Shown here: piece after piece, positions 35,429 through 57,605 of the stretch
Layout of the letters: every line of letters starts with the position of its first letter
Numbering within the stretch: position 1 is the first letter of the stretch
IMG/VR virus record: IMGVR_UViG_3300026159_000398
Reading direction: 5' to 3' (one strand)
Source of the DNA: a virus
Taxonomy: Duplodnaviria; Caudoviricetes
DNA: 64,000 nucleotides
Program-made: the position numbers and the translations under genes
The notes under the pieces: model-generated
Databases searched by the model: none
Seen by the model: the letters and a program-made list of their open reading frames with translations, nothing else
Told to the model about the DNA's origin: nothing

Positions 35429-35455
35429 CTTTAGAGTTGTGACTCACTCTTGATG

Positions 35456-35801
35456 TGGACCCGCGGAGAGTCGAACTCCGGTCTTACATAAATACAACTA
35501 ATGTTGAATTACAAGCTTTTTTCATTTTTCTATCTTTGGTAGTGCACCATAAAATGAATAAACGCGTAGCACCTAACATGTTTTTGTTTCAGTTGAAAGC
35601 CAACACCCAAATTGAATTCAATCAACCTATCCTCTAAATGAAGGTGATCAGTAGTCGAGGAATCTATCTGACACCATGTTGCTTAGTTATTAAGCAGCGA
35701 GTTGTTCTTCAGCATTTAACTGTTTTGCCCCGTTTAACCACTCTGAGCAAGTGGGCTTGCACCATTAACTTTACCTCTGCAATCGAAACCAGTTCGGGCC
35801 C
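35456..35801 (-). ncRNA. ssrA: tmRNA, tag peptide (A)AEEQLAA
   Basis: 5' GGGCCCG pairs with 3' CGGGUCC-A (G3:U alanine identity); T-arm CGGAG-UUCGACU-CUCCG; tag ORF GCT GAA GAA CAA CTC GCT GCT TAA TAA starting at 35713. Confidence 0.93.
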
Positions 35802-36801: not shown

Positions 36802-36957
36802 TCATTCACTGCTTTGTTTAGATTTTTTATGCGCATCATCCGGAATTTTTTCGTCCCATGATAAGCAACTATAAATTCCGTTTTCTGGCGCTTTACAGAA
36901 ATGACATTCTGCTTCAGAAAGAACGATCTGCTTACTTTTTTTACAGTAACCTATCAT
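36802..36957 (-). CDS. small Cys-containing protein (51 aa, below the ORF-track cutoff)
   Basis: MIGYCKKSKQIVLSEAECHFCK..; ATGA overlap with the Ro60 stop. Confidence 0.45.
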   Translation of the reverse strand: MIGYCKKSKQIVLSEAECHFCKAPENGIYSCLSWDEKIPDDAHKKSKQSSE

Positions 36958-38570
36958 ATCTTTCCAGCAACAAATTCACTTATTACTCGAGGCGCATTTG
37001 CATCAAATCCTACGATGTCCAACATTCCAGCATCATTTGGGTCAGCAATTGAGAATCCATTACTGTTCATACCCACAACGATCAGACGAGCATCATGAAC
37101 AAATTGGTTACGGTATTGTTTCAATGCTTGCACAGGTTGAATATTTCCAGCCCATGTTTCATTGTCTGTGTAGACGATGAAAGCATCAAACATATATTTC
37201 TTTTCTTTTGCCCAAATCATTGGCAATGCGCAATCTGTTCCTCCGAAATTGACACCATCAACTTTGTTCAAAATGGCTTCAAAACTCATGTTTGGAGTAA
37301 TGTCAAGTTTTTGGAATCTGTTGTTGAAAGCCATGATTGTGTATTCTTTTTCAACACGAGCAGTTACCATAGCCATCAATGCTGAACATTCAGCACATGT
37401 TAAAATTCCACTTGAAATTTCAGAACTCATAGAGCCTGATACGTCTATTCCAAGAAGCATTCTTTTTCCAGAAGGCTCAATTGTTTTGAAGCTCAAGTAA
37501 AACGCTTGTTCAAGAGCATCAACAATTTTTCGCACTGGAGTCCATGTCAAGTTGCCTCTGAAGCCACGACCCATGCTATAAGTTTTTTGAGCGAGAAGAA
37601 TATCCATAGGGTGAATACGGCTTTTCTTTAGATACGCTTCATCTGTGATTTTACTTACGACCATGCTCACGTATTCATTTTGGCCACTATCAAGAACTCC
37701 AATAGAAGTCAGACGATTCAAGTTGCGAATGAGAGCCTTCAGAGGAATATCTTTCAAAGCTGCTTTCCATACTGCGACATTGTTTTTTATCTCAGTTGGC
37801 CATGCATCTTGAGGAATCTTGTGCTCAGCGATCAATTCAATAGAACGCTTGACATCTTCTGCACGAAGAGACTTCAATTCTTCGGTTGCATAAACCAAAG
37901 GAAGATCTTCTGTAAACTCGTTCTTTACGGCATACTTAAACAACTGTGCGTGCACAGGAGTCATAGGTTTGACGTGTGCAGAACGCAGAATATCTTTGTG
38001 TGTCCATTGGTTCTCTGTTCCTTGAACAGTACGGCCTGCATATTTGATCATTTGATATTCAAGTTTTGTTGGGTCCATTGAATACCAGTTGCCAAATGCG
38101 TTACGAATGGCACGTCCCCAGCTTCTCAGATCGTCAATGTACTGGGCAAATGTAAACATGTGTGTTCCAGTACGGCAAATCTCAGGGAACATTCTCGATG
38201 CCGCATGTTTGATTATCTTGTCGTCTGTTTCTGAAAACAAAACTGCAAGCAGCATAATTGCTGGGTCATTCTTGTGTGCACGGCCTTCGACAGAAATATT
38301 GTACAGCATTGTAAGAACTTTTCCTGCATCTTCCTTAATGCAAGCAATGCTGTTCTTGATATTCTCTTTTGTCAGTTTGTTTTCACGTATGTAGTAAGTG
38401 CCGCCCTCACTTCCGAGAATCAGGAATCTTTCAAGACGTTTCCATTTGTCAAGTGCAAATGAGAATCCACCGGCTGAGTTGGCAACCATGTCTGCCTCAC
38501 GACCTGGTATAGGTTTTGATTGAGGAGTAACAGTTTTCTTTGCTTGACTGTTTGTGTAGTTGTGTGCCAT
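36954..38570 (-). CDS. rsr: Ro60/Rsr TROVE-domain RNA-binding protein
   Basis: NSAGGFSF..LERFLILGSEGGTYY, RTGTHMF, WGRAIR, SRIHP, DVSGSM vWA, GGTDCALP, TDNETW, GFDA. Confidence 0.95.
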   Translation of the reverse strand: MAHNYTNSQAKKTVTPQSKPIPGREADMVANSAGGFSFALDKWKRLERFLILGSEGGTYYIRENKLTKENIKNSIACIKEDAGKVLTMLYNISVEGRAHKNDPAIMLLAVLFSETDDKIIKHAASRMFPEICRTGTHMFTFAQYIDDLRSWGRAIRNAFGNWYSMDPTKLEYQMIKYAGRTVQGTENQWTHKDILRSAHVKPMTPVHAQLFKYAVKNEFTEDLPLVYATEELKSLRAEDVKRSIELIAEHKIPQDAWPTEIKNNVAVWKAALKDIPLKALIRNLNRLTSIGVLDSGQNEYVSMVVSKITDEAYLKKSRIHPMDILLAQKTYSMGRGFRGNLTWTPVRKIVDALEQAFYLSFKTIEPSGKRMLLGIDVSGSMSSEISSGILTCAECSALMAMVTARVEKEYTIMAFNNRFQKLDITPNMSFEAILNKVDGVNFGGTDCALPMIWAKEKKYMFDAFIVYTDNETWAGNIQPVQALKQYRNQFVHDARLIVVGMNSNGFSIADPNDAGMLDIVGFDANAPRVISEFVAGKI

Positions 38571-38600
38571 TTTATATCTCCATTTAGATTATTTGCGACC

Positions 38601-38638
38601 AAAAAAAACCACCCGTATCATCATTTGGTACGGGTGGT
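38601..38638 (-). terminator. intrinsic terminator in the Ro60 leader
   Basis: ACCACCCGUA / UACGGGUGGU stem + U8, ~30 nt upstream of the Ro60 ATG. Confidence 0.8.
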
Positions 38639-38705
38639 CTTGTGGTTGGTTCGTAGCTTCAAAGATTTTACCTCCTCGCTAGGAACCATCATACAATAGG
38701 TATCT

Positions 38706-38757
38706 GATAACGCTTATCCCCCGTACCTTTTAAATAAGGTCAAATTTTTGGAAAGCG
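38706..38757 (-). promoter_or_regulatory. loop-closed Ro-binding helix in the Ro60 leader
   Basis: CGCUUUCC-AAAAA-UUUGACCUU-loop-AAGGUACGGGGGAUAAGCG-UUAUC; same motif as the Y RNA at 38857. Confidence 0.65.
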
Positions 38758-38856
38758 ATATTGCTCTCTATTGAGAGCAGCGATTTTTAAAACCGTTAAG
38801 TCATAAAAATCTCCTGTAAAAATAAGTTCGTTGAGACTAGTAACTAATAAAAAATT

Positions 38857-38945
38857 GATCGGTCAAGTTGATGGATTGGGAGAGTGGCACATGGCCACGA
38901 TACACACCAAAAGTTTGTAGATAACCCAAGTCCTTCCGTACCGTC
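38857..38945 (-). ncRNA. Y RNA (Ro60 partner)
   Basis: 5' CGGUACGG..GGACUUGGGUUAUC pairs with 3' CCCAAUCC..CUUGACCG, matching the GGUCCGA/CUUGAC bulged helix of Y RNAs; own promoter at 38959 and a U-run after it; next to Ro60. Confidence 0.75.
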
Positions 38946-38974
38946 TAAACTATATAGAATTATATTACATGCGA

Positions 38975-39460
38975 CTATTTTTTTATAGGTTTTTTTTCTT
39001 TTTTTGCCACTTTTTTCTTGCGTGCGGCTTTAACTTCTGCTAATCTTTCGTCTTCTTTTTCTTGAAAAGCTTTCTGCAGTGCTATAGATTGTTCGTGATG
39101 GATTTTGGTATTGACATTCATTGTTGCCATAAGCCAATTTTTACGGAGCCATCTTATAAGTTCAACAATTGGAAGAGATGTAATTCCTGCGACAACTATA
39201 TCAGAACCACCAATAACCCAATACATTTCATTGACGGTTTTGAATGTCACGAATCCTGAAAAAATCCATCCAATCATATTAACATGAAGCCACCCAATAC
39301 AAAATACAACTCCAGCAAATATACACATTATCGCTACTGAAATGGCTATTATCAATAAAAACCCCGCAAGACATCGTGGTCCTGTGAATAAAGCATGTTT
39401 AAGTTCTTCTCTTTTCAGTCGAAAGAATTCTTTCCAGATCATTTTAAGTTTATTATCCAT
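38975..39460 (-). CDS. membrane protein
   Basis: Two hydrophobic segments. Confidence 0.55.
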   Translation of the reverse strand: MDNKLKMIWKEFFRLKREELKHALFTGPRCLAGFLLIIAISVAIMCIFAGVVFCIGWLHVNMIGWIFSGFVTFKTVNEMYWVIGGSDIVVAGITSLPIVELIRWLRKNWLMATMNVNTKIHHEQSIALQKAFQEKEDERLAEVKAARKKKVAKKEKKPIKK

Positions 39461-44455: not shown

Positions 44456-44529
44456 TATCCTCCGGCAGAGTCGAACTGCCATCACTGAGTTCGTAGCCCA
44501 GTACTCTAAATCCATTGAGCTAGGAGGAC
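44456..44529 (-). tRNA. tRNA-Arg(ACG)
   Basis: Cloverleaf; anticodon loop CUACGAA. Confidence 0.9.
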
Positions 44530-44533
44530 GAAT

Positions 44534-44611
44534 TACCCTCAGAAGGACTTGAACCTCCATGCATCCAATTAACCTTTCAACGCGTTCGTAGCGCGAGGGT
44601 ATACGGAGAGA
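44534..44611 (-). ncRNA. atypical tRNA-Arg(ACG)-like RNA lacking a normal D arm
   Basis: CGCG-CUACGAA-CGCG arm and GGAGG-UUCAAGU-CCUUC T arm; weak acceptor stem. Confidence 0.6.
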
Positions 44612-44615
44612 AATG

Positions 44616-44687
44616 TCCTGAGAGTCTGAGTTGAACAGACACCTGCTGGGCTTCAACTAACCGTGCGACCAAGTACACTATCTCAGG
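44616..44687 (-). tRNA. tRNA-Phe(GAA)
   Basis: CCUGAGA/UCUCAGG acceptor; loop UUGAAGC. Confidence 0.85.
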
Positions 44688-45261
44688 TAAAATATAATTC
44701 TGGCAATTCTTGTTCAGTAACGACAAAAAAATTATCGCCATATTGTTTATTTGCGGCTTTTAATTTAGCCTGAATTTTTGATTCCTTTAATCTAAAATGA
44801 GGTTTTATTTCCACTATACTTTTTTCTCTTGGTAAATAAAAATCAGGATAGTAGTAATGTTCATTGCCTTCAAAAGTATATTTGACTCTAAATTTTTTAT
44901 TATCTGCTCTTTCATAAGGAATTTTATATTCATCAAGAAGTTGCATGAATTTGAGTTCAAATGAAGATTCATAAGGAATGCCATTATAAATTCCATTTAT
45001 ACTTTTTAATCTTTTATTGCTGGGTTCCCATCCGTCACGAATATGTTGTTTATGTTCTTCGGAAAGTTTCTTTCCTTTTCGAGAATTACTTATTTTAAGT
45101 TTTGTTTCTTGCGAAATTTTATATCCTTTAGAACGATTCTTTCCGATGCATGACACACTTATTTTTAATTTTGTTTCTTGGGAAACTTTGTGTCCTTTGA
45201 GTGAATCGCTAATTTTTTGATTTCGTGCTGATGAATATTTGAAACCCTTTTTTCTTGACAT
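44683..45261 (-). CDS. homing endonuclease, NUMOD3 + PD-(D/E)xK
   Basis: SQETKLKIS repeats; YYPDFYLP..IVEIK. Confidence 0.8.
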   Translation of the reverse strand: MSRKKGFKYSSARNQKISDSLKGHKVSQETKLKISVSCIGKNRSKGYKISQETKLKISNSRKGKKLSEEHKQHIRDGWEPSNKRLKSINGIYNGIPYESSFELKFMQLLDEYKIPYERADNKKFRVKYTFEGNEHYYYPDFYLPREKSIVEIKPHFRLKESKIQAKLKAANKQYGDNFFVVTEQELPELYFT

Positions 45262-45365
45262 GATAATTACCTCTACTATAATTATAAACGGAAGTTAGGC
45301 TGATTGAGTAGAGCAATCAGCCAAGGGAGCTACCCTCTTTCCTTCCTGTATTTATAATTATATTA
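45262..45365 (-). promoter_or_regulatory. structured endonuclease leader, copy 1 (SD-sequestering pseudoknot)
   Basis: GAGGGUAGCUCCCUU core; hairpin loop CUCUACU complementary to AGUAGAG at the SD. Confidence 0.7.
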
Positions 45366-45369
45366 CATG

Positions 45370-45651
45370 TCAAAGATTTTTTTGATATTGTTTTTTAAAT
45401 TTTGTTAATTTCTTCCAGCTTTTTGTTGTATAACAACTGGGATATTTTTCAAGATTCCCCCACCTATTTAGATATGAAGGGCCTCTTCTTTTACGTAACA
45501 AAATTCCATCATCAATATCTTTTTGCCATCTGCATCTCTCTTGTTGAACTCTTTGACGACGATATCCAAGCCATCTGTGTTCAGCAAGCATCCACCATTT
45601 AGGGCAAGGATGTTCTTCATATCCCCACCACTTTGACCAATGATAGTACAT
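45370..45651 (-). CDS. small basic Trp-rich protein
   Basis: AGGAGG SD; preceded by an MTFK minigene and hairpin. Confidence 0.55.
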   Translation of the reverse strand: MYYHWSKWWGYEEHPCPKWWMLAEHRWLGYRRQRVQQERCRWQKDIDDGILLRKRRGPSYLNRWGNLEKYPSCYTTKSWKKLTKFKKQYQKNL

Positions 45652-45760
45652 TATAACCTCCTAAGTTTTCACTTAAAAGTCATAAAGTACCTCCATAAAA
45701 AGTTTTTTCATAATAACATCCTTTTTGAATTTTAACATGAACAATGTTAATGTTCAGCTT

Positions 45761-45961
45761 TTATGTTAATGACACCATTGTTTGATGTTCACATGTATCT
45801 TCAGCATCTTTTTTGGTATTATTCAATTCACAAATTCCTGTAGTACTTTGAAATTCTTGTAAGTCTTTTTCTGTATGTTTATAAAGACTTTCCCACTTTT
45901 GGCAATTTGCACAAATTTTTAATTGTCTGTCAATTGGTTTTCTCATTGTTATTTTCCTCAA
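45761..45961 (-). CDS. small Cys-rich hypothetical protein
   Basis: CANC..GIC..C, similar to 43474-43707. Confidence 0.45.
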   Translation of the reverse strand: MRKITMRKPIDRQLKICANCQKWESLYKHTEKDLQEFQSTTGICELNNTKKDAEDTCEHQTMVSLT

Positions 45962-46601
45962 ATTCTTTTTTTATTCTTATAATTTGTGTTCTACTAATTT
46001 TTAGATTTTCTGAAGCTCGTGATATCCAGCCGCGTTTATCATAATCATATAATTTTATTTTTTTATATAATTCAGCACGTATTTGTTTGGCTTTTTCTGA
46101 TGAATATGTTAAATTTAATTTTTTGAGACAACGAGTTATATGAACAACACTGCAATTAAATTCTTTAGCTAATTCTTCTGTATTGATATTACTTTCAAAT
46201 AATCTTTTTAATTTTTCAAAATCAATTTCTTTTTTATTCCATGCCTTTTGTGAATTTTTTGCGCCTTTATTCCATGGTGAACATCCCTTTCTGTTACCTG
46301 GAATTGTATGAATAAATCCGCCTTGACCACCTTCTAAAATATTGTAACCATAAAGTCGATTATTACTTTGAAAAAACTTTATGCATTCTTTTTCAGCTTT
46401 ATTAAGTAATTTTTCTGAATTACACCAACCTAGAATTATTTTTTCTAAATGAATAGAACCACGTTTTTGAATAACTTGACGAATTATTTTTCCTGAGCCA
46501 AAATAATTCTTTATACCTTTTAAACTTTGATTAGTTGTTTTACCAACATAAACTTTTTTTGTAAAATGATCTTTAATGAGATAAATGTAGCCGTATGACA
46601 T
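45930..46601 (-). CDS. GIY-YIG homing endonuclease with HTH
   Basis: GYIYLI..VYVG, YFGSG, GYNILEGG. Confidence 0.85.
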   Translation of the reverse strand: MSYGYIYLIKDHFTKKVYVGKTTNQSLKGIKNYFGSGKIIRQVIQKRGSIHLEKIILGWCNSEKLLNKAEKECIKFFQSNNRLYGYNILEGGQGGFIHTIPGNRKGCSPWNKGAKNSQKAWNKKEIDFEKLKRLFESNINTEELAKEFNCSVVHITRCLKKLNLTYSSEKAKQIRAELYKKIKLYDYDKRGWISRASENLKISRTQIIRIKKEFEENNNEKTN

Positions 46602-46706
46602 GATAATTAGCCTCAACATAATTATAAATATAGAAGTGAGACCAGTAAGTTGAGGTTACTGGTCAAGGGAGCTACCCTCTGTCCTTCTGATATTATAATT
46701 ATATTA
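46602..46706 (-). promoter_or_regulatory. structured endonuclease leader, copy 2
   Basis: Same core; loop CCUCAAC complementary to GUUGAGG at the SD. Confidence 0.7.
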
Positions 46707-46734
46707 CATCATCGACTAAATTCTTCTCTCATTT

Positions 46735-47211
46735 TTACTGGACGAGTGAATCCGCGGCGTGCGTCGCTGCCCAGCTATCATGCTTGATTTTGTATTCGAA
46801 GCCCATTGCTTCCACCCATCCAATAGCTTCTTTAGCAATAGAGTTGGATTTGTGTTCAGGGTTTGGGTTGATGTCCAAGTGAACTTGGAATCCACGAGTT
46901 CCAACAAGATCAAGTAGCTTTGTAGAAGCATCAACCACAAGTTCAACTTCCTTCATCAAGCGTTCACGCATACTTCTGATGCGAGCGGTTTTTGAAACTT
47001 CCACAAACATGTGGCCGCCTTTTGAACTTTCAATGTGAACGATGATAGCAAGACCAAAACTTGTATAAGCTTTGTGGTTCTGGCTGTCAACTCCAACATA
47101 GATTGTGCTGGTTTGAGGAGTATTTTTGATGTACTCTTTCAAATCATCCCAATCAATAGCTTGTGTGATTCTTCTTTCCCCTTCTTTTAGATCGCTCTTG
47201 AACTTTTTCAT
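46735..47211 (-). CDS. RNase H-like YkuK/DUF458 family protein
   Basis: IYVGVDSQ, RLMKEV, VHLDIN..HKSN, KHDSWAATHAAD. Confidence 0.8.
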   Translation of the reverse strand: MKKFKSDLKEGERRITQAIDWDDLKEYIKNTPQTSTIYVGVDSQNHKAYTSFGLAIIVHIESSKGGHMFVEVSKTARIRSMRERLMKEVELVVDASTKLLDLVGTRGFQVHLDINPNPEHKSNSIAKEAIGWVEAMGFEYKIKHDSWAATHAADSLVQ

Positions 47212-48262
47212 ACGAACGTCATCTCCATCTTACCCAGAACTTTTATTTGAGATGGTTCTATCATGGCTGAAAAACAGCCACTCTGATAAAAATCAGCAGT
47301 GTCGCCGTTCTTATCATAGGAACCGTCTTTTTTCAGACGTTTTACGAAAACATGATGGCCATCAGGATAAACGTCATTGTGTGCTTTTCCACCGCCATCC
47401 ATTTTCGTCTTTATAACTACAAACTTTCCACCTTTGAGACAAAACTTTTCATAGGAAAGTTGTTGCTTGCTTAATTGTGTTTTTACAAAGTTGATTATTA
47501 CTTTATTATCGACTTTCGCTCCAACTCTTTTAAAGGCGTTGCGAACTTCATTGGCAATGTCATGATAATCTGTATCAATTATCGGGTCATATTTTTCATC
47601 AATAGTTACTTCATGATGGCATTTATCATTTGAGAATGCCATGTTCTGATAAACATATCGTTCAGGAACATCGGTATAAACGCAATGACCTTTTCTCAGT
47701 TCAACAACATCACCAACTTTCAGCATGACTCACTCCTTTTCATCTAAATGTCTTTCAATGTATGCCTTATCCTGTTGAACTTTGTATGTGTCAAGTTCTC
47801 TAGACATCATTTTCAGAAGTTCTTTTTCAAGATCGCAGCTCATGGTTTTTAATTCTTCAGCTGCTTCAACTGTCCATTTGCATTTAAATGGTTTATTGTG
47901 ATAAATTTTACGAATCTTCCACCAATTACGCCATCCAACTTTCTTGAACGCTTGGCGAACTGGAACATTCATTACAATTCTGGTGGTTGGTATTTTTCCA
48001 AGCTCACCAAAATCTATTACGTCTCCTTTCCAATGAATGGTAATTCTCATTACCACCCTCTTTCGTTGTTTGTTGTAATTTCTATGACAGCGAAAACTGC
48101 CATCAATAATCCTAAGAGACCTAAAAAGAAAATAATCGAGAAAAACAACCAATCTTTAGTGATAATTTTATTTCCAGCTTCTTTAATCATGTGCCACAAA
48201 AATGCGACACCACATCCACCAAAAAATAACCATCCTAAAACAAAGGCTAAAACAATTTCCAT
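47208..48262 (-). other. three hypothetical genes (47208-47726, 47730-48050, 48050-48262 membrane)
   Basis: Coupled - strand ORFs. Confidence 0.55.
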
Positions 48263-48273
48263 ACTCTCTCCAT

Positions 48274-48354
48274 TAGGGATACCCAGACTCGAACTGGGAC
48301 GCCATTAGGCACAGGGTTTGAGCCTGCTGAGTAGACCAATTCCTCTATATCCCC
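48274..48354 (-). tRNA. tRNA-Leu(CAA)
   Basis: Loop CUCAAAC; variable arm. Confidence 0.9.
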
Positions 48355-48608
48355 GTATTTTTATTTATTTATTGCAAGGCAGATTTTCTTGAATTCTGCA
48401 TCGCATGCTTTCATTGATGTTTCTTCGTCTTCTTCTACACCAAAATCCCAGGTGTATTCATTGCCATTACGCATAGTGAATTCAATGGAACACAAATCAT
48501 CTGTTTTATGAAATGATTCAATGTCATAAGTACGTATAACATCATTTTGAGGATGACCATCTTTACTCTTGCATATCAGAAAATCCATAACTCTCTCCTT
48601 TTGTTTTG

Positions 48609-48682
48609 TGCATCCCGTGAGATTTGAACTCACCACTTTCCCGTTATGAGCGGGGTACTCTAACCAACTGAGTTAGGGATGC
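48609..48682 (-). tRNA. tRNA with CAT anticodon (elongator Met or Ile2)
   Basis: Loop CUCAUAA; fully paired acceptor. Confidence 0.85.
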
Positions 48683-49098
48683 TTATTTCACTTCTTTGGC
48701 GTTTCTCAATCTCATTATCAATTCTTCAATTTTGACTCGTTTGAATGGAAAAAATAATGAGTGCTTCGCTCTATCAAGAGCAGTTTTCAGAAGTTCAATT
48801 TCTTCTTCAGTGAGAATGTCGATCATGTAACGTCTTTGACGGTAATTTCTCATACGCTCTCCTTTGGATATTTTATTGAAATAGATTTTATGATTATTTC
48901 TTTTGGTTCTAAAATCATTAAGTCACCAAAAACCACACCAAAATTTTCTAGACTTGCATTTCCATTTCTTCGCATAACATCAGTAATGAAGGCTTCAGCT
49001 TGTTCTACCATTTCAAAACCTTTCATGCCGTGCTCGAATTCGGTATCGTAAAATACCCAGACTTTTCGTTTCATTTCCATAACTCACTCCTTTAAATG

Positions 49099-49170
49099 TC
49101 CGCTCGACAGGAATCGAACCTATTTCTCCGGTTTATCAGACCGGTGCTTCGCCATTTAAGCTACGAGCGG
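49099..49170 (-). tRNA. tRNA-Ile(GAT)
   Basis: Loop CUGAUAA. Confidence 0.9.
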
Positions 49171-49176
49171 GTGATG

Positions 49177-49250
49177 CAGAAGTGACTGGATTCGAACCAG
49201 TATCTTTCGATTTTGGAGATCGATATTTTGGCCAGTTAAACTACACTTCT
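49177..49250 (-). tRNA. tRNA-Trp(CCA)
   Basis: Loop CUCCAAA; G73. Confidence 0.9.
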
Positions 49251-49294
49251 AAATGTCTTCTTATTGAATTATATTATAATTATTTATACTTTAT

Positions 49295-49963
49295 TTAGAT
49301 TTTTAATAATTCTGGTAATTCTTTTTCAGTTATAAGTAAAAATTTATTTCCAAATTGTTGTTTGGCTGCTTTTAATTTTGCTTTTGTTTTTAAATCTTTT
49401 AAATAATATACTGATTTAATTTCAATAATAGAATCTTCTCTTGGTAAATAAAAATCAGGATAGTAGTAATGTTCTTGATTTTCAAAAATGTATTTTATTT
49501 TAAATTGATTCGCTCTTTCATAAGGAATTTTGTATTCGTCTAATAACTTCATAAAATTAAGTTCATAAGATGATTGATAAAATATTCCATTATGAAAACC
49601 GTATTTTCCTTTTGCACGTTTATTGTTAGGTGTCCATGCTTCACTAATATGTTTTTTATGTTCTTCAGAAAATGGTTTTTTGGGTTTACCTTTTCTTAAG
49701 ATACTTTTTTGTTGATTGGCTTCTAAAGAGTGTTTGCAGCCTTTAGCATTTTTATTACCAATTTGTGCAAGAGACATTTTTTGTTTTGTGGTTTCAGAAA
49801 ATGGTTTTCTTTTTTTCCCTATATTAGAAAGACTTATTTTTAATTTAGTTTCTTCTGAATGTGGAACTCCAGATTTGCCTTTTTTGGGTGATGGTTTACC
49901 TTTTTTAGCCTCACTCATTTTTCTTTTGGATTTTTCTGACATTTTATATCCTTTATAGCTCAT
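49295..49963 (-). CDS. homing endonuclease, NUMOD3 + PD-(D/E)xK
   Basis: HSEETKLKIS repeats; YYPDFYLP..IIEIK. Confidence 0.8.
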   Translation of the reverse strand: MSYKGYKMSEKSKRKMSEAKKGKPSPKKGKSGVPHSEETKLKISLSNIGKKRKPFSETTKQKMSLAQIGNKNAKGCKHSLEANQQKSILRKGKPKKPFSEEHKKHISEAWTPNNKRAKGKYGFHNGIFYQSSYELNFMKLLDEYKIPYERANQFKIKYIFENQEHYYYPDFYLPREDSIIEIKSVYYLKDLKTKAKLKAAKQQFGNKFLLITEKELPELLKI

Positions 49964-50158
49964 AATTGTTTCCTTAGAGTATTGTAATTATTGCACCATA
50001 ATTTTTAAAATGATCAATAATATTCTCAAAATGTTTGCCAAGAGTCCATTGAGCAATATCAGGTGCTCCAGTGATTATTGTATTTTCTTCCTTTAAAACG
50101 AAATATTTTCCATCTGGCATCTTCACTGAAAACAACCGCATACGCGCCTCCACGAATG

Positions 50159-50231
50159 GGAGAATATCGAGACTCGAACTCGAACTGCTAGGGTCACGAC
50201 CTAGGGTGCTAACCATTACACCATACTCTCC
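50159..50231 (-). tRNA. tRNA-His(GTG)
   Basis: G-1:C73; loop UCGUGAC. Confidence 0.9.
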
Positions 50232-50288
50232 ATATGCAAGTCACGTAAAACGTGACAAGAACCATTTGTACACATGGTACATTGGATG

Positions 50289-50360
50289 TGGGCCCATAGA
50301 GAATCGAACTCTACTCAATCGGTTAAAAGCCGATTGCTTCGCCAACAAAGCTTTGAGCCC
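50289..50360 (-). tRNA. tRNA-Lys(TTT)
   Basis: Loop CUUUUAA. Confidence 0.9.
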
Positions 50361-50436
50361 AAAATGATTTACTCTTTTTTTAGAGAGGCAGTTAATCTCA
50401 TTCCTCTACACGATTAAAGCTAATGCGTACTATATG

Positions 50437-50523
50437 CGGATGACCAGAGATTCGAACTCTGAGAGCCTTTCGACCCGCTTGTTTTCAAGACAAGTCCCCG
50501 CACCCACTGGGGTCAAGCCATCC
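50437..50523 (-). tRNA. tRNA-Ser(TGA)
   Basis: Loop CUUGAAA; long variable arm; G73. Confidence 0.9.
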
Positions 50524-50668
50524 ATAAATACTGAGTGACCATAATATAAAGGTTGTCTCGAGATCTCTTTATACCACACATTTTTACCCCAATGTGCCGG
50601 ATATATCATCTTGATGGTCAAAATTTTTCTTGCGTCTAGTTCGGAAGAAAAATTTTCTTTACTCATTT

Positions 50669-50755
50669 CGGAGCCGAGAGGATTCGAACCTCTGTAGGAG
50701 TTACCCATACAACAGTTTAGCAAACTGTCCACTTACCTGGCTAGTGTACGACTCC
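50669..50755 (-). tRNA. tRNA-Ser(GCT)
   Basis: Loop UUGCUAA; long variable arm. Confidence 0.9.
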
Positions 50756-50770
50756 ATTCACAACTTAAAA

Positions 50771-50902
50771 GAGAAAATATAAATGAGGGACCGATATAGA
50801 TTATGTGTTTATATCTGGCAGGTTCACCCACAGGCATCTTATCTACGAGCTATGTCTCTCACCAGCTGCCAACCTCTAACATAGATCACTTTACATTTTC
50901 TC
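50771..50902 (-). ncRNA. unassigned structured RNA (~132 nt)
   Basis: Closing stem GAGAAAAUGUAAA / UUUAUAUUUUCUC plus inner stems. Confidence 0.5.
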
Positions 50903-50905
50903 ATG

Positions 50906-50979
50906 AGACGCGGATGGGACTCGAACCCACACAAAACAGTTTTGCAGACTGACCCATTATTCCATTCTGGTACCGCGTC
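50906..50979 (-). tRNA. tRNA-Cys(GCA)
   Basis: Loop CUGCAAA; U73. Confidence 0.9.
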
Positions 50980-52705
50980 ATGAATAATCTACTTCACTGA
51001 ATTTGAATCCTTTGTTTTGAAATAGATCAATACAAATATCAACTAATTCAGCATTATATTTTGTGCCTCTGCCATCGCGTAATTCTTGAATAGCAATATC
51101 AATTCCGAGAGCCGGACGATATGGTCTATGAGAAGCGATAGCTTCAACAATATCTGCAATACAAATAATTTGTGCACCTAAAAGAATTTGATTTTCTTTT
51201 AATCCTTGTGGATATCCCGAGCCGTCTATTTTTTCATGGTGCTGATAAATCATTTCAGCAATTGGCCAAGGAAAATCAATCTTCTTTAAAATATCATAAC
51301 CATCTTTTGCGTGCATTTGAATCAATTGAAATTCAATGCTATTAAGAGATGATGGTTTTGCAAGCAATTCAGATGGAACTCCAAGTTTTCCAATATCATG
51401 AATACTGGCTGCGAGTTCTATTCCTTGAATATCTTCAAAATCAAGACCTTTGGCTTTGGCTATCTCTTTCGCAAGTTCTGCAACTCGCAATTGATGGCCT
51501 GCAGTATAAGAGTCTCGAGTATCAACAACCAATCCAAGAGCTTGAATAATACCACTCAACGTTCTTTGAAGTTTATATTCAGCTTCTTTTTTCGAAGTAA
51601 CATCAATCGAAAAATTCAATGTTGCTGGCTTGCCTTTCCATTCAACGCGTGAAGAAGTTATTTCAACCCATTTAATATTACCACGAGTATCTTGTACTCG
51701 AAAAGCGTAATTAGTTGGGACATCTTCTCCGTTTAATCTGCGTTGATATCGATCAAAAACAAAACCTAAATCTTCTTTATAAATAACTTCAGATACTTTT
51801 TTATTGGCAATAATTTCTTCTGGCGGACATTCCATCAATTTTCCGAATGCCGGATTTGCCAATGTAAAACCATCTTCTTGTGCAACAAAAATTGCTATTG
51901 GTGCGTCTTTAAAAAGTCGAACATAATCTTCTTCGGTCTTTTTCTTTTCTGTAATGTCAATACCAAACGACAACGTTCCAATAACTTTTTCAATAACCTT
52001 TACAAGAGTATTGCGCCAAAGAATGTATTTTTCTTGTCCGTCTTTGGTTAATATGGGATTTTCGAATTCGTATGGAATTCCCTTTTCTGTCAGTCTGTCA
52101 AACTGTTCCCATATTTCTGGATATTTTTCTCTCGGAACAAAAATTTCAAGAACTTTTTTATTCTTTACTTCATCAAACTTATACCCAGTAATTTCTTCAG
52201 CTGCTTTATTAAAAATAACGGCTCTTGCGTTATGATCAAGCATGAGAATCATTGTATTAGCGTGTTGAATTAAATCATCTGCAAATTCTTTTGCTAATCG
52301 CAGTTCTCTTTCTGTCTGCTTGGCGACTGTAACATCATGAATGATTCCTAACAAAAATTCTTCTTCAGCGATTTCAATTCGCGTCAAGAATATTTCTGTC
52401 TCAATCATCTTTCCTTCAAAATCAATACAAGTCCAATCATATTGTTGATTTTCAATTTGAGCAACTTGAATGATGCACTTACATTTATCTTCCGATAATT
52501 GTCCGTCTTTTTGATATTTTGGAGAAAGTTGTACAGGTGTTAAACCAATCAAATCCTCTCTTTGACATTTAAACATCTTTTCTGCTTGAGGATTGCAATC
52601 GACTATCATGTCACCCGCAAGAATTAAAATAGCGTTTGGTGTTTTATCAAACAGCAAACGATATCGTTGCTCTGATTCGAGCAACTTCTTTTTCAGCTGT
52701 TCCAT
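50978..52705 (-). CDS. PAS-PAS-PAS / HD-GYP cyclic-dinucleotide phosphodiesterase
   Basis: Three PAS repeats (N..AE..F/TG; DIT/DVT); YTAGHQ, IHDIGK, HHEKIDGSGYPQGL, RPYR. Confidence 0.92.
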   Translation of the reverse strand: MEQLKKKLLESEQRYRLLFDKTPNAILILAGDMIVDCNPQAEKMFKCQREDLIGLTPVQLSPKYQKDGQLSEDKCKCIIQVAQIENQQYDWTCIDFEGKMIETEIFLTRIEIAEEEFLLGIIHDVTVAKQTERELRLAKEFADDLIQHANTMILMLDHNARAVIFNKAAEEITGYKFDEVKNKKVLEIFVPREKYPEIWEQFDRLTEKGIPYEFENPILTKDGQEKYILWRNTLVKVIEKVIGTLSFGIDITEKKKTEEDYVRLFKDAPIAIFVAQEDGFTLANPAFGKLMECPPEEIIANKKVSEVIYKEDLGFVFDRYQRRLNGEDVPTNYAFRVQDTRGNIKWVEITSSRVEWKGKPATLNFSIDVTSKKEAEYKLQRTLSGIIQALGLVVDTRDSYTAGHQLRVAELAKEIAKAKGLDFEDIQGIELAASIHDIGKLGVPSELLAKPSSLNSIEFQLIQMHAKDGYDILKKIDFPWPIAEMIYQHHEKIDGSGYPQGLKENQILLGAQIICIADIVEAIASHRPYRPALGIDIAIQELRDGRGTKYNAELVDICIDLFQNKGFKFSEVDYS

Positions 52706-52774
52706 TTATTTTCCCTTAATAAAAATTGGTGTCAATTATATATTAAGTCGAAATTTATAAATGGAACAGAAAAT

Positions 52775-52847
52775 TAGGGCTACGGAGGTTTGAACTCCGA
52801 TCGTCAGGTTGAAAACCTGATGTCCTCACCAATTAAACGATAGCCCC
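52775..52847 (-). tRNA. tRNA-Glu(TTC)
   Basis: Loop UUUUCAA. Confidence 0.9.
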
Positions 52848-52849
52848 AT

Positions 52850-52953
52850 TGGCGGGGTCAGGAGTGTTTGAGCCTCCATCTCCTCTCACGGACGAGAGGT
52901 GTTTTAGTATGGCACGCTTGACATGCCAGGCCGGCCAATTAAACTACAACCCC
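52850..52953 (-). ncRNA. aberrant tRNA-Asp-like RNA with D-loop hairpin insertion
   Basis: GGGGUUG/UGACCCC-G-CCA acceptor; 8-nt loop CGUCCGUG; degenerate T loop. Confidence 0.6.
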
Positions 52954-52958
52954 ATAAT

Positions 52959-53030
52959 TGGGGTGAATGGGAGGATTCCCTCCATTTCAGGACCCGCTGT
53001 CCTGTGTCCTAGGGTTAGACGACATTCACC
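52959..53030 (-). ncRNA. aberrant tRNA-like RNA (8-bp His-type acceptor, GCG at the anticodon position, 4-nt T loop)
   Basis: GGUGAAUG/CAUUCACC-CCA; CAGGA-CAGCGGG-UCCUG; GGAGG-GAAU-CCUCC. Confidence 0.6.
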
Positions 53031-53033
53031 ATG

Positions 53034-53106
53034 TCTACGACCTGGGAGTCGAACCCAGATTTTTCTCCACCCCAAATGGAGTACCATTCCGCTAGGCGAG
53101 TCGTAG
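53034..53106 (-). tRNA. tRNA-Pro(TGG)
   Basis: Loop UUUGGGG; C1:G72, A73. Confidence 0.85.
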
Positions 53107-53110
53107 TTAT

Positions 53111-53181
53111 TTGTCCCTAAAGGAATTGAACCTTTACTGTGGGGGCCAAAACCCCATGTCTTACCGTTAGACGAAGGGACA
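53111..53181 (-). tRNA. tRNA-Gln(TTG)
   Basis: U1:A72; loop UUUUGGC. Confidence 0.9.
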
Positions 53182-53187
53182 ATGTTT

Positions 53188-53269
53188 GATGAAGAGCGGT
53201 CCGGTTTGCTACTAGCTACCATACGGCAACCTTCAAATGCATCCTTTGGGGCCTTGATTATTCTTCATC
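53188..53269 (-). ncRNA. unassigned tRNA-sized structured RNA
   Basis: GAUGAAGA/UCUUCAUC closing stem with two inner hairpins. Confidence 0.45.
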
Positions 53270-53272
53270 GAT

Positions 53273-53352
53273 TAGCCCACCCCAGATTCGAACTGGGACG
53301 CCGAAGCACAGGGTCTAGACCTGCTAGATAGACCAGATTCTCTTAGTGGGCC
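53273..53352 (-). tRNA. tRNA-Leu(TAG)
   Basis: Loop UCUAGAC. Confidence 0.88.
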
Positions 53353-53360
53353 GTAAAAAT

Positions 53361-53441
53361 TCGGGATACTCGGATTCGAACCGAGACGCAATTAAGCACT
53401 GGGTTTAAGCCAGCTGGATAGACCTATTCTCCTATACCCCG
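53361..53441 (-). tRNA. tRNA-Leu(TAA)
   Basis: Loop CUUAAAC. Confidence 0.9.
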
Positions 53442-53445
53442 TAAT

Positions 53446-53521
53446 TCGTGATGAAGAGATTTGAACTCTTACTGAATACGCTCTCAACGTATTTCCTCTA
53501 CCAAAATTGGGATACATCACG
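53446..53521 (-). tRNA. tRNA-Leu(GAG) with short variable loop
   Basis: AUACG-UUGAGAG-CGUAU; 5-nt variable region. Confidence 0.8.
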
Positions 53522-53604
53522 TTAATGCGACGCACTTTTGTTACTGTGATCAGCAGTTTTTTGTTTGTGCGCCTTATCGCTTTTACCGTGCGACAATTGC
53601 AATG

Positions 53605-53676
53605 TGGGTTGTCAAGGATTTGAACCTTGCCCTGCGATTTTACAGACCGGCGTGCCACCAGCAACACTTACAACCC
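53605..53676 (-). tRNA. tRNA-Tyr(GTA) with short variable loop
   Basis: Loop CUGUAAA; 4-nt variable region. Confidence 0.8.
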
Positions 53677-53681
53677 AAATG

Positions 53682-53752
53682 AGCATTCGACCAGAATTGA
53701 ACTGGCATCTCAGCGTTGGCAACACCGAATTCTACCATTAAACTACGAATGC
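53682..53752 (-). tRNA. tRNA-Gly(GCC)
   Basis: Loop UUGCCAA; U73. Confidence 0.9.
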
Positions 53753-53756
53753 AAAA

Positions 53757-53880
53757 CGTACTGGCGATAGGAATCGAACCTATACCGTCATCTTTTAAGG
53801 GTGATAATCAATCTCTGTCCGTACCAGTTTGGTCTAATGTGTAGAAATTGAGTTTTACGCTTTACCAAAAGCGCCAGTAC
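53757..53880 (-). ncRNA. tRNA / Y RNA hybrid (Ro-binding module at the anticodon position)
   Basis: Acceptor ACUGGCG/CGCCAGU, T arm AUAGG-UUCGAUU-CCUAU, internal UAGACCA-AAC-UGGUACGGA..AUUGA-UUAUC. Confidence 0.75.
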
Positions 53881-53884
53881 TATG

Positions 53885-53956
53885 AGCGGGAAAAGGGATT
53901 CGAACCCTCAACGATCAGTTTGGAAAACTGAGCTTCTACCATTGAATTATTCCCGC
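53885..53956 (-). tRNA. tRNA-Gly(TCC)
   Basis: Loop UUUCCAA; U73. Confidence 0.9.
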
Positions 53957-53958
53957 AT

Positions 53959-53990
53959 AATAAAAATGCCCCTCTTTGTGGGAGGGGCAT
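53959..53990 (-). terminator. attenuator terminator upstream of the tRNA array
   Basis: AUGCCCCUC-CCACAAA-GAGGGGCAU-UUUUAUU, 2 nt before tRNA-Gly. Confidence 0.8.
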
Positions 53991-54025
53991 CATTCCGATT
54001 TTAAAATTTAACACCAATTAAAACA

Positions 54026-54118
54026 TCACGGATGACATGCCCCAACCTGTCCTGGGAGAATCTGACCTTCCAGACTTGAGGGTTGATAAAAACGTTTATG
54101 TAAGGAACATATCATCAT
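54026..54118 (-). CDS. 30-aa leader peptide MMICSLHKRFYQPSSLEGQILPGQVGACHP
   Basis: Follows the TAATATAAT promoter (54136-54144) and an AGGU SD; last codons form an antiterminator strand. Confidence 0.75.
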   Translation of the reverse strand: MMICSLHKRFYQPSSLEGQILPGQVGACHP

Positions 54119-54135
54119 TTTGAATTACCTATAGA

Positions 54136-54144
54136 ATTATATTA
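54136..54144 (-). promoter_or_regulatory. recurrent phage promoter motif (T)AATATAAT (example copy)
   Basis: Same motif just upstream of genes or RNAs at ~6997, 10880(+), 18831, 18881(+), 18939(+), 25471, 27538, 31451, 36791, 38959, 42841, 44402, 45357, 46698, 49268, 52736, 57255, 59255, 59477. Confidence 0.75.
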
Positions 54145-54172
54145 TTGCACTTTGAAATTTATTTATAAAAAT

Positions 54173-54448
54173 TTACGCTACTTCTAAAAATTGTGCGTCC
54201 TCTCTGTCTTTTTGTTTTAACTCGGCATTTGAAAGAGGACGCTTACCAAATGCTCTTGTTTTACATGATTCACATCCACAAGATAATGGGTGGTGTTTTT
54301 TGTAATGACCTTTAAAATCTGCAAGAAACTTTTCGCCGTTAAGCGTGTTAAATTTTTCTGGCATCTTGATTTCGTCTTTCATTACATGATAACGTTTTTC
54401 GGTGATGCGTTTATTCTGGTGTCTTTTGTACGCTATTCCACGTCCCAT
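54173..54448 (-). CDS. small basic protein (H..CGCESC)
   Basis: GAGG SD; ORF track. Confidence 0.55.
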   Translation of the reverse strand: MGRGIAYKRHQNKRITEKRYHVMKDEIKMPEKFNTLNGEKFLADFKGHYKKHHPLSCGCESCKTRAFGKRPLSNAELKQKDREDAQFLEVA

Positions 54449-54454
54449 AAGACC

Positions 54455-54891
54455 TCACAAATAATTTTTGTAAAAGCTAATATAGCCTAAAGTCACTCCC
54501 CAATAATATCCAGTATTTTGTTGCTCAACTTCATCAACACATCTAATGAATCTGAATTGAGGTAAATAGAGAATATTTGGTTTTTCAAAAATTTGTTCTA
54601 TTTCAATGGTATATCGTTTTTTAAAAATATCTTTTGAATACATACTCATTCCTATTTTTTATTCAAGACTCTATACCACGAAAGTCTTCCATTTGAACCA
54701 CAACTATGATAAATTACAGTGTCTTTGCAAACAATATAATAATGATTGTATTCACCTTTAATGTCCAAGCCCCATATTTCGCATTCAGGAAACATAGTCT
54801 TTAGTATTTTGACATTTTTATCCCATTGTGGTTTGTCATTACCGCAAGCCAAAAACATCAGAAACACAAGACATAAAAATATTTTTTTCAT
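54455..54891 (-). other. two small genes (54455-54649; 54652-54891 putative lipoprotein, FLAC)
   Basis: Coupled ORFs with SD sequences. Confidence 0.5.
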
Positions 54892-55060
54892 TTTTCACTC
54901 CTTCCATCATTTGCTCTCAATAATTCAAGCTCCTCAAGAAGAGGTTTAATGTCTTGAAATTTTACCAGAGTATTGTCGTCATCTGGTTTTGCCTTAAATA
55001 AAGCTACATCAGGATTCCAATAATATTGGGGCACTTGTATCATCACTCACTCCTTTAATG

Positions 55061-55134
55061 TCGGGGCGAAAGGATTTGAACCTTCGACCACATGTTCCCA
55101 AAACACGTGCGCTACCAGACTGCGCTACGCCCCG
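55061..55134 (-). tRNA. tRNA-Pro(TGG), second copy
   Basis: CGGGGCG acceptor; loop UUUGGGA. Confidence 0.9.
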
Positions 55135-55308
55135 AAAATGACCAATGCAATTAAAGCCAATGCTGCTAAGATATACAAAAATAAAATGAATTTTATTTCC
55201 ATTTCTTTTCGTGCAATTCGACACTCCAACCACTCTGCTATCTGATGAAACGCCGATTCTTCTGGCTCTTCATGAATTGGTATTCTTGCTACTTTTTTAG
55301 TAGGCACT

Positions 55309-55554
55309 TTAGTTAGAGCTACCTTTAAAAAGTATTCCGCAAAGCCAACTGAGAAGAACCGCATGCCACCATCCGATTTCGCCGATGATGAATCCTTTAA
55401 CTACTATGCCAGGAAGAACAAAAGGCACTACATACGGCCATATCAGCCATACAAGCGTTCCAGCAAAAACCGCTACAATGAAAAGAAGCACTAATGCTAC
55501 AACGGCCGCTCCTACACCAGCAATAAGCTTGGCAATAAAATCACTCATTCGCAT
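55309..55554 (-). CDS. small membrane protein
   Basis: Highly hydrophobic; AGGAG SD. Confidence 0.55.
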   Translation of the reverse strand: MRMSDFIAKLIAGVGAAVVALVLLFIVAVFAGTLVWLIWPYVVPFVLPGIVVKGFIIGEIGWWHAVLLSWLCGILFKGSSN

Positions 55555-55701
55555 ACTCCTTAAATTTATTTACAACTCTTAAAGCATTCAAGTTGTTGTT
55601 GCTGTATTTCAATAGTCGAATTCTTTACTGAATTATTGCAAAATTGGACAATATTAGCCAGTAATAGCACACTCACAACAACCAATAAAATTCGTTTCAT
55701 T

Positions 55702-56049
55702 TTATATTTCCTTTTCAAAAAGTTGCTTTAGAATTGGACTTTGCCAACCAAAAAGTTTCACATGACGATTGATACAATAAAGAGTTACTTTTTTCCAACC
55801 TTCAAGTTCATTGTCTTCAAGATCATGCCACATAAGAAGTGGTCGTAAGACTTGAACGAGCGTAAATGTCCGTTTGCCGTAATATGAGTCTTCAGTTTTC
55901 TGTGTGATTTTGGTTACTTTTCCAAAATTCATCCACAATGAACTTCCAGTACGGCCAGGATATGTGATGACATCTCCGACTTTTACGTCATTGCCACAAC
56001 AATCTTTATAACTTTCGAGTTGAACAATAATGTCCTCTTTCATACTCAC
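55702..56049 (-). CDS. hypothetical protein (D..G..VKVGD.I)
   Basis: AGGAG SD. Confidence 0.55.
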   Translation of the reverse strand: MSMKEDIIVQLESYKDCCGNDVKVGDVITYPGRTGSSLWMNFGKVTKITQKTEDSYYGKRTFTLVQVLRPLLMWHDLEDNELEGWKKVTLYCINRHVKLFGWQSPILKQLFEKEI

Positions 56050-56059
56050 TCCTTTAATG

Positions 56060-56131
56060 TAGAGTCGGAGAGACTTGAACTCTCATCCTACTGCTTGTAG
56101 GGCAGCCGCTCCGCCATTGAGCTACGACTCT
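56060..56131 (-). tRNA. tRNA-Val(TAC)
   Basis: Loop CCUACAA. Confidence 0.9.
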
Positions 56132-56165
56132 GTGTGGCCGTTAGTTGACGGCCAGTTTACAATAA

Positions 56166-56471
56166 TTATTTTACGAGTTTTTTTCTCTGCTTGTCAGTCA
56201 GAACTTTATCCATTGCTTTAACTTGTTTTTCAAGATCAGCAATTTCGACTTTCAAACCTTTCATTGCAGCTTGTTTTTCTTCAAGCTGAACTTTGACGCT
56301 TTCTGTTTTCTTCATTTGAATTTTGCATCCAGTGACTCCACCGAATGTCATGCCAGCGAAAAATATCAGAGCAGCGAGAGCGCCGTAAATGACAACCTTA
56401 CCAATCTTCGTTGCTTTGAAAGCTACGAATTTGGCTTTTGCGGCCGCAAAAAATGCTTTAACTTTTTCCAT
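56166..56471 (-). CDS. TM + coiled-coil protein
   Basis: Hydrophobic helix followed by heptads. Confidence 0.55.
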   Translation of the reverse strand: MEKVKAFFAAAKAKFVAFKATKIGKVVIYGALAALIFFAGMTFGGVTGCKIQMKKTESVKVQLEEKQAAMKGLKVEIADLEKQVKAMDKVLTDKQRKKLVK

Positions 56472-56497
56472 TGTTCACTCCTTGTTTTTTTAAACTG

Positions 56498-56572
56498 CGG
56501 GGCATACGGGACTCGAACCCGTGATGATTCCTCCGTGACAGGGAGGTGGCATTGCCGCTAGCCCAATACCCC
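56498..56572 (-). tRNA. tRNA-Asp(GTC)
   Basis: Loop CUGUCAC; G73. Confidence 0.9.
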
Positions 56573-57235: not shown

Positions 57236-57295
57236 ATTCGAACCTCTATATTTAATTATATTACAAGAGTTCGAATAAAATTATTAAAATAAATG

Positions 57296-57369
57296 CGGGG
57301 AAGGTGAGAGTCGAACTCACAACCCAACGGTTAACGGCCGTTTGCTCTAGCCATTAGAGCTACATCCCC
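57296..57369 (-). tRNA. tRNA-Asn(GTT)
   Basis: Loop CCGUUAA; G73. Confidence 0.88.
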
Positions 57370-57406
57370 GAAGTCTCCGTTTAATTCGCCAAACGGATAA
57401 AATGCG

Positions 57407-57525
57407 ATGAGCAGCCATTTTGATTAGTAAGGAGTTGGACTTATGTGCACACATTACCAACCCAGTCTAATCAAGTCCCTTTGCAGAACGGGCTTGGACT
57501 AGTATGTCACCGTTCTTTTACTCAT
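57407..57525 (-). ncRNA. unassigned multibranch structured RNA
   Basis: AUGAGUA/UGCUCAU, AGAACGG/CCGUUCU, UUGAUUAG/CUAAUCAA and GGGUUGG/CCAACUC stems. Confidence 0.5.
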
Positions 57526-57526
57526 G

Positions 57527-57599: not shown

Positions 57600-57605
57600 A
57601 AATAC

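Follow-up and report, generated by a model that had tools for sequence, protein, structure and literature searches.

Ro60 and its Y RNA partners are conserved from bacteria through humans, and we know of no described means by which cells or phages balance Ro60 against these RNAs. In the pyr leaders of Bacillus subtilis, PyrR stabilizes an anti-antiterminator hairpin and the downstream terminator then forms. The B. subtilis infC leader, a case of transcription attenuation, carries a copy of the cognate RNA site of L20, and the operator of Escherichia coli ThrRS is a mimic of the tRNA anticodon arm. Here we analyzed the region upstream of the Ro60 gene in a 64,000-nucleotide stretch of phage DNA (Caudoviricetes, IMG/VR record IMGVR_UViG_3300026159_000398; this whole stretch is hereafter the window), which represents part of a 205-kb viral contig in reverse orientation. 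A structured RNA of approximately 250 nt separates a canonical Y RNA (Y RNA 1) from Ro60; it carries a loop-closed copy of the Y-RNA stem and ends in an intrinsic terminator. Our preferred reading, to which we assign a probability of roughly 0.5, is that this element would serve as a Y-like small RNA whose leaky terminator sets the amount of Ro60 mRNA.

The closest described RNAs are the bacterial and phage Y RNAs, including YrlA (Chen et al., 2014, PMC4201824; Wang et al., 2018, bioRxiv 10.1101/312249). Like these, the element has a bulged helix in which a 5' GGU-N-CG(G/A) pairs with a 3' UUGAC(C/U), and it is encoded directly upstream of a Ro60/Rsr gene, apparently co-transcribed with another Y RNA. 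A second helix with a GUUAUC-like continuation is also shared with the Y RNAs, including Yrl1 and Yrl2 of Thermus phage phiLo (PMC12135203). However, the two strands of the helix are joined by a 6-nt loop instead of being the 5' and 3' ends of the RNA (a permuted topology), the T and D arms are missing, and a terminator lies 30 nt before the Ro60 ATG. The tRNA-like domain on an end-formed Ro stem that characterizes YrlA (Rfam RF02553) is likewise absent. No Rfam family matched the element, and neither YrlA nor tRNA was matched in 38571-38975 even at E values up to 10; matches to Thr_leader (E 6.4), mir-186 and IR_84 were noise (E 4-6).

A structured RNA between Y RNA 1 and Ro60

All coordinates of the element are on the minus strand, as are the genes of the region. 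From Ro60 upstream, the features are:

36954..38581, minus strand: Ro60 gene with its Shine-Dalgarno (SD) sequence, GGAG at 38581-38578 and open reading frame (ORF) at 36954-38570
38597..38602, minus strand: UUGGUC, perhaps, on weak evidence, what is left of a 3' strand from a last Y RNA that has collapsed
38601..38638, minus strand: intrinsic terminator, hairpin followed by U8
38621..38675, minus strand: SD sequence GGAGG and UUG-initiated upstream ORF (uORF) of 13 codons
38627..38637, minus strand: region 3, CCACCCGUACC, the terminator 5' arm and candidate antiterminator partner of region 2
38648..38687, minus strand: hairpin B, outer stem GGUUC/GAACC, with an inner hairpin pairing GGAGGU with AUCUUU
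38691..38703, minus strand: small hairpin (AUAC...GUAU), found in minimum free energy (MFE) folds, at the position of a tRNA variable arm
38706..38757, minus strand: loop-closed (circularly permuted) Y-RNA stem
38763..38778, minus strand: hairpin A (GCUCUC-AAUA-GAGAGC), found in all folds, at the position of the D arm in tRNA-shaped relatives
38796..38815, minus strand: SD-like AGGAG and mini-ORF AUG ACU UAA, read from the sequence
38856..38948, minus strand: canonical Y RNA 1, terminal helix CGGU-A-CGG / UUGACCG, U-run at 38854-38849
38959..38967, minus strand: promoter-like motif TAATATAAT in front of Y RNA 1

The element thus consists, in order, of hairpin A, the permuted stem, the small hairpin, hairpin B and the terminator, and folding of the 276-nt region gave a z-score of -5.6 against shuffles. 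An initial annotation, made from the sequence of the window, had placed a loop-closed copy of the Y RNA helix at 38706-38757 and a strong terminator about 30 nt before the Ro60 ATG. Both were recovered, the former by folds, family alignment and covariance model, and the latter in every MFE fold. The permuted stem and Ro60 share a strand, with 135 nt between the stem and the downstream ATG. In it, region 1 (UUUGACCUU, 38744-38736) is followed by the 6-nt loop and by AAGGU-A-CGGG (38729-38720), which opens region 2 (AAGGUACGGGGG, 38729-38718), and the helix continues with GGA/UCC, a bulge, the outer helix AAGCG/CGCUU and then UUAUC. The terminator stem has 10 bp, ACCACCCGUA being paired with UACGGGUGGU, plus two inner pairs; the terminator scan listed 38601-38638 on the opposite strand owing to its loop-size rule. 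No credible ORF was found in the 405 nt separating Ro60 from the upstream ORF at 38975-39460. An acceptor-like closing stem for the leader RNA was looked for by eye and not found, and pairing of the hairpin B loop with the first SD region, present in the window, was not conserved in one close relative (L003).

The ORF at 36954-38570 encodes a complete Ro60 of 538 amino acids with a TROVE domain (8e-34) and a Ro60-type von Willebrand factor A domain (vWA_Ro60, 3e-68), and homologues of this protein number in the thousands. The leader was compared in five sequences, namely the window and the loci with the closest Ro60 proteins (L003 and L002, each 86% identity; L004, 68%; L005, 67%). Three of the five are near-identical across the permuted stem and terminator that could act as a switch, and there are in effect two independent lineages. 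The comparison is limited to these five because no closer N-terminal Ro60 fragments turned up, the search for short ones giving none closer than 54% identity. After the first Y RNA, the order of the parts is common to all five sequences and ends in a terminator. An SD-like site with an AUG mini-ORF of 2-6 codons occupies the same place in each, with a different peptide every time. The position of hairpin A holds a hairpin of entirely different sequence in L002, L004 and L005, and the outer stem of hairpin B has another sequence with its pairing retained in L003, L002, L004 and L005. Since hairpins A and B hold their pairing despite different sequence and the permuted stem is almost invariant, the structure of this RNA is evidently under selection. 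The view of the element as a functionless remnant of a decaying Y-RNA array would fit a terminator that resembles a collapsed Y RNA, as well as one biogas-fermenter contig that breaks off inside the helix (see below). We consider it very improbable, as the 52-nt stem has barely changed though the Ro60 proteins are only 67-86% identical, and the flanking hairpins go on pairing with new sequence.

In L005, the permuted module has its own, unrelated terminator, and four further Y RNAs (one of the YrlA type) stand between it and Ro60. For these reasons the module would act there as a stand-alone RNA, and it appears to be free-standing and not the immediate leader of Ro60. The segment L005:2580-2985 holds five canonical or YrlA-type Y RNAs and the permuted module upstream of Ro60, an unusually large ligand set. 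Exact-pattern scans for the module found nothing beyond chance: of the scans of viral contigs, one was without a match and another gave a chance match in a coding region, and the others yielded one chance match, again inside a coding region, among metagenome contigs, and no match in species genomes; a single-protein locus search of viral contigs also found nothing. A terminator-like hairpin within 160 nt upstream of Ro60 was present in 6 of 80 other phage Ro60 loci, none of them with this layout.

The permuted stem and its tRNA-shaped relatives

The permuted stem belongs to a family of which 17 members were aligned. In this alignment 81.9% of the cells were paired, compared with 39-55% when the partners were slid, and ten pairs had changed on both sides. 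The core pairs were kept in most members (C-G in 17/17, A-U in 15/17, G-C in 13/17 and U-G in 16/17). A covariance model built from the alignment recovered all 17 stems at 37-65 bits, including the leader stem at 64.8 bits, and found almost nothing in 78 more distant phage Ro60 loci. The A-bulged terminal helix of Y RNA 1 is of the same type as the helix of the permuted stem; in Rfam, Y RNA 1 itself weakly matched RF01656, the stem-bulge/Y family of nematodes (26.7 bits, E 0.015, under the gathering threshold). With 17 members and covariation in hand, the leader helix is a true homologue of the Y-RNA stem, and the element is a new, permuted and leader-embedded variant of Y RNA for which binding of Ro60 is predicted.

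Eleven members of the family, from L004 to L009, sit in tRNA-shaped RNAs of about 125 nt, and a twelfth tRNA-shaped member is found in the window. In L006, L007 and L009, whose Ro60 proteins are 57-59% identical to that of the window, and at other sites of L004 and L005, the anticodon arm has given way to the loop-closed stem. These RNAs have an open acceptor stem, a D arm, a T arm and a long arm ending in the loop-closed Ro-type helix. They are located at:

L004:828-950
L005:4800-5400
L006:2150-2410
L007:449-704 and 2218-2341
L009:2064-2403
53758..53880 of the window, minus strand: acceptor stem, D-like hairpin, T arm and loop-closed Ro helix

Six of the tRNA-shaped RNAs in L006, L007 and L009 reached 44-58 bits with the tRNA model of Rfam, and a cloverleaf fold was obtained for L009:2063-2186; the ARAGORN run did not call the tRNA-shaped RNAs. 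The RNA at 53758-53880 also has a cloverleaf fold (z -2.98) and scored 36.7 bits (E 3.7e-5) on the covariance model, of whose training set it is a member; it had no Rfam tRNA match. Three tRNA-shaped permuted RNAs lie downstream of Ro60 in L005. YrlA has been likened to a circularly permuted tRNA in which the acceptor stem is closed (Wang et al., 2018), whereas the tRNA-shaped RNAs of the sister phages have the opposite topology, and an open acceptor stem combined with a replaced anticodon arm was not found described in the literature searched. The leader element shares with these RNAs a homologous Ro arm (37-65 bits across the family) and the same order of elements. In contrast to them, it lacks the acceptor stem, the T loop and the T-loop consensus, and it has SD-like sequences followed by the terminator and Ro60. 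Its layout matches that of the tRNA-shaped Y RNAs once their acceptor stem and T loop are taken away, and the conserved RNA of about 250 nt would descend from Y RNAs rather than being a plain mRNA leader.

The terminator and its alternative pairing

The motif TAATATAAT at 38959 is the sole copy, with up to one mismatch, on the minus strand from 39273 to the Ro60 stop, and it is conserved upstream of the first Y RNA in L002-L005. Allowing one mismatch, 81 matches were counted against 36 expected. Exact copies, which often precede RNA genes, number 11 on the coding strand (minus strand; 27537, 36791, 38959, 44402, 45357, 46698, 49268, 54136, 57255, 59255 and 59477) and 2 on the opposite strand. 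The motif is probably the -10 element of a phage promoter. Between the Y RNA 1 promoter and the Ro60 ATG, the minus strand has no second TAATATAAT and no sigma-70-like site. A promoter downstream of the terminator, which the initial annotation had named as a danger to its model, was looked for, and neither a promoter-like site nor the motif was found between the terminator and the ATG. Two sigma-70-type candidates, one after the terminator and one at TAAAAT within hairpin B, were rejected, neither being in the promoter-scan list. Because promoter motifs are absent downstream of the copy at 38967, transcription of Ro60 must, judging by sequence alone, cross the terminator.

According to our preferred reading, the TAATATAAT promoter at 38967 would drive transcription of the element together with Y RNA 1, and most transcripts would stop at 38638-38601, so that most of the RNA would be freed as a small RNA that binds Ro60. 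Ro60 would be translated solely from the read-through fraction, and the RNA partners would consequently exceed Ro60 mRNA. Control of the read-through by Ro60 itself is plausible. In the metatranscriptome run X7, the contig with a relative's module had a word depth of 55.8, compared with 10 for the contig coding for Ro60, and in run X16 one contig from an RNA library extends from the end of Y RNA 1 into the module. These are weak hints of co-transcription and of less RNA past the stop, as the run evidence consists of assembled contigs, which carry no strand and cannot show transcript ends or levels; stretches that lack cover in runs X1, X2, X7 and X16 are uninformative.

The initial annotation had also stated that a strand of the permuted stem is exactly complementary to the terminator 5' arm, and indeed GGUACGGG (38727-38720) is fully complementary to CCCGUACC (38634-38627). 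The duplex of regions 2 and 3 (2:3) gains two further G-C pairs past a bulged A, for ten pairs in total, and covers almost the whole 5' arm. The best duplex between this arm and the upstream 195 nt has an energy of -19.3 kcal/mol, a value reached by 3 of 3,000 dinucleotide shuffles and by 4 of 4,102 windows of the phage genome. Among the seven strict terminators of the genome, that of the Ro60 leader has by far the best upstream complement. The antiterminator pairing is thus non-random. In the full-length leader, the MFE fold combines the Ro helix (1:2) with the terminator, and a forced antiterminator is less stable by 12.8 kcal/mol in the window, by 13.3 in L003, by 6.4 in L002 and by 19.6 in L004. 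In transcripts cut before the terminator 3' arm (region 4), the antiterminator and the Ro helix of the window are isoenergetic (-54.8 and -53.7 kcal/mol, respectively). The antiterminator is the MFE structure of these shorter transcripts in the window, L003 and L002, and is 3.9 kcal/mol worse than the Ro helix in L004.

Such complementarity could have arisen through the ancestry of the terminator. Its loop and 3' arm, including a 7-nt flank, are identical at 18 of 21 positions to the start of the second Y RNA of L005, and the UUGGUC that follows the U-tract aligns with the UUGACC found 13-15 nt before the Ro60 SD in L005, L006, L007 and L009. The terminator looks like a collapsed last Y RNA. 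As the partner of a Y-like 3' arm also pairs with the Y 5' strand of the module, the complementarity may be a by-product, used or not. Under our preferred reading, the 2:3 pairing would be physically real and would stem from the collapsed-Y ancestry of the 3' arm, not from a dedicated Ro60 sensor. The same segment bears on a translational operator, in which Ro60 bound to the module, or to a mini helix (GAU-A-CGG / UUGGUC) about 15 nt before the SD, would block the entry of ribosomes on mRNA that has passed the terminator, leaving termination itself unaffected. UUGGUC could pair with GAU-A-CGG of the terminator 3' arm, which would place a compensated mini Ro helix beside the Ro60 SD, at the very place where the four relatives keep a canonical Y RNA 3' strand. 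This explanation is quite unlikely, since the terminator competes for the same strand and is far more stable than the mini helix, whose covariation amounts to three short triplets.

Several observations weigh against a by-product and favor a functional 2:3 pairing. The window, L003 and L002 share an identical region 3, although the terminator loop and 3' arm differ, and the 5' arm is the more conserved of the two. C38628 is mismatched with its own 3' arm and pairs with G38726 of the module, a hint that something besides the terminator constrains it. In L004, the module and the terminator 3' arm both carry G-to-A and the 5' arm carries C-to-U, all in the same register and with the 2:3 pairing retained. 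The helix that region 3 would have to invade is weak at that point, with three consecutive G-U pairs. Moreover, the nascent antiterminator is as stable as the Ro helix, a balance that a pure by-product leaves unexplained.

From the mutually exclusive pairings, the initial annotation had proposed a switch operated by Ro60, and a Ro60-sensing attenuator is a live alternative, though less probable than our preferred reading. Free Ro60 would clamp regions 1 and 2, the terminator (3:4) would form and Ro60 would be off; with Ro60 titrated by Y RNAs or misfolded RNA, region 3 would invade, 2:3 would form and transcription would read through. The parts for such a device are in place, as an intrinsic terminator stands between promoter and ORF with no promoter after it, and by computation the antiterminator shares a terminator strand and is competitive in the nascent RNA. 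A terminator so near Ro60 in a Y-RNA unit is also unusual, the layout being found in 0 of the 80 other phage loci. The logic would be that of the PyrR-dependent pyr leaders; unlike there, the gene would be controlled by the protein that it encodes, through a hairpin that mimics this protein's natural RNA ligand. On the other hand, the pairing is absent from L005, where an A in the module faces a C in the region 3 remnant (A.C mismatch) and the terminator is different, and probably also from the close relative in run X7, whose sequence differs at the expected region 3, with 30 nt visible. The energies of L004 disfavor the antiterminator, the Ro helix, formed about 95 nt earlier, leaves no single-stranded toehold, and an origin of region 4 as a Y-RNA 5' strand can explain the complementarity. 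The covariation analysis of leaders that the initial annotation had called for gave a mixed answer, with three near-identical sequences, one compensated change (L004) and one sequence without the pairing (L005), in effect only two independent lineages. Hence, the helix homology, the terminator and a non-random, isoenergetic 2:3 pairing survived from the proposed switch, whereas L005, run X7 and the by-product alternative count against it.

The uORF offers another way to control the terminator. As had been annotated, it has a GGAGG (38675-38671), a UUG start (38662-38660), four ACC codons in the peptide MKLRTNHKTTRTK and a UGA stop (38623-38621) inside the terminator loop. Ribosomes translating it could block the terminator hairpin, akin to the pyrBI and thr leaders; the SD-spacer-UUG arrangement is kept in four of the five sequences and the frame always crosses the 5' arm. 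We find this coupling unlikely. Of the five sequences, just the window and L003, its nearest relative, have the stop in the terminator loop; the frame continues through the terminator in L002 and L004, and L005 has neither the SD nor the uORF. Frame, length, stop and peptide are not conserved. Furthermore, hairpin B sequesters the SD, the ACC codons are explained by a C/A-rich spacer, which L002 reads in a different frame, and the Thr_leader match in Rfam is noise.

Genome context and implications

Sequences near-identical or related to the window were recovered from biogas-fermenter, anaerobic-digester and sludge runs; the habitat is read from runs whose contigs were placed on the window, to the exclusion of others with small word shares. 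A 9.2-kb biogas-fermenter contig (run X1) is 100% identical to the window from 39100 to 38741 and then continues with unlike sequence, the breakpoint falling within the UUUG|ACC strand of the Ro helix; this contig is either a mosaic relative or an assembly chimera. Among GenBank phages, there were just weak coding matches to Ro-like genes of Streptomyces phages. The phage genome also encodes a tmRNA (35453-35801, minus strand) and 27 tRNA genes (44456-58806, minus strand), one of which, with a CUA anticodon at 53273-53352, was labelled Pyl by ARAGORN.

A strong stop between the RNA partners and Ro60, wired to a copy of the Ro docking site, makes this locus a compact system in which autoregulation can be tested in vitro. 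As with L20 and ThrRS, the leader of an RNA-binding protein holds a copy of its cognate site; unlike in those cases, the mimic is apparently also a free-standing RNA in at least one relative. No Ro60 case of this kind and no Ro60 autoregulation was found in the literature searched, in line with the initial annotation, which had considered such feedback undescribed. If the attenuator were true, it would be the first autoregulatory circuit described for any Ro60, with a permuted Y stem in cis gauging the pool of free Ro60, and the first Y-RNA mimic used as a transcriptional operator, built by collapse of a tandem Y-RNA array. More broadly, the Ro-binding stem is a portable module: it sits at the ends of classical Y RNAs, takes over from the anticodon arm in the tRNA-shaped RNAs of this genome and the sister phages, and is built into a leader-like RNA at the present locus. 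This portability bears on the proposed tRNA origin of YrlA RNAs.
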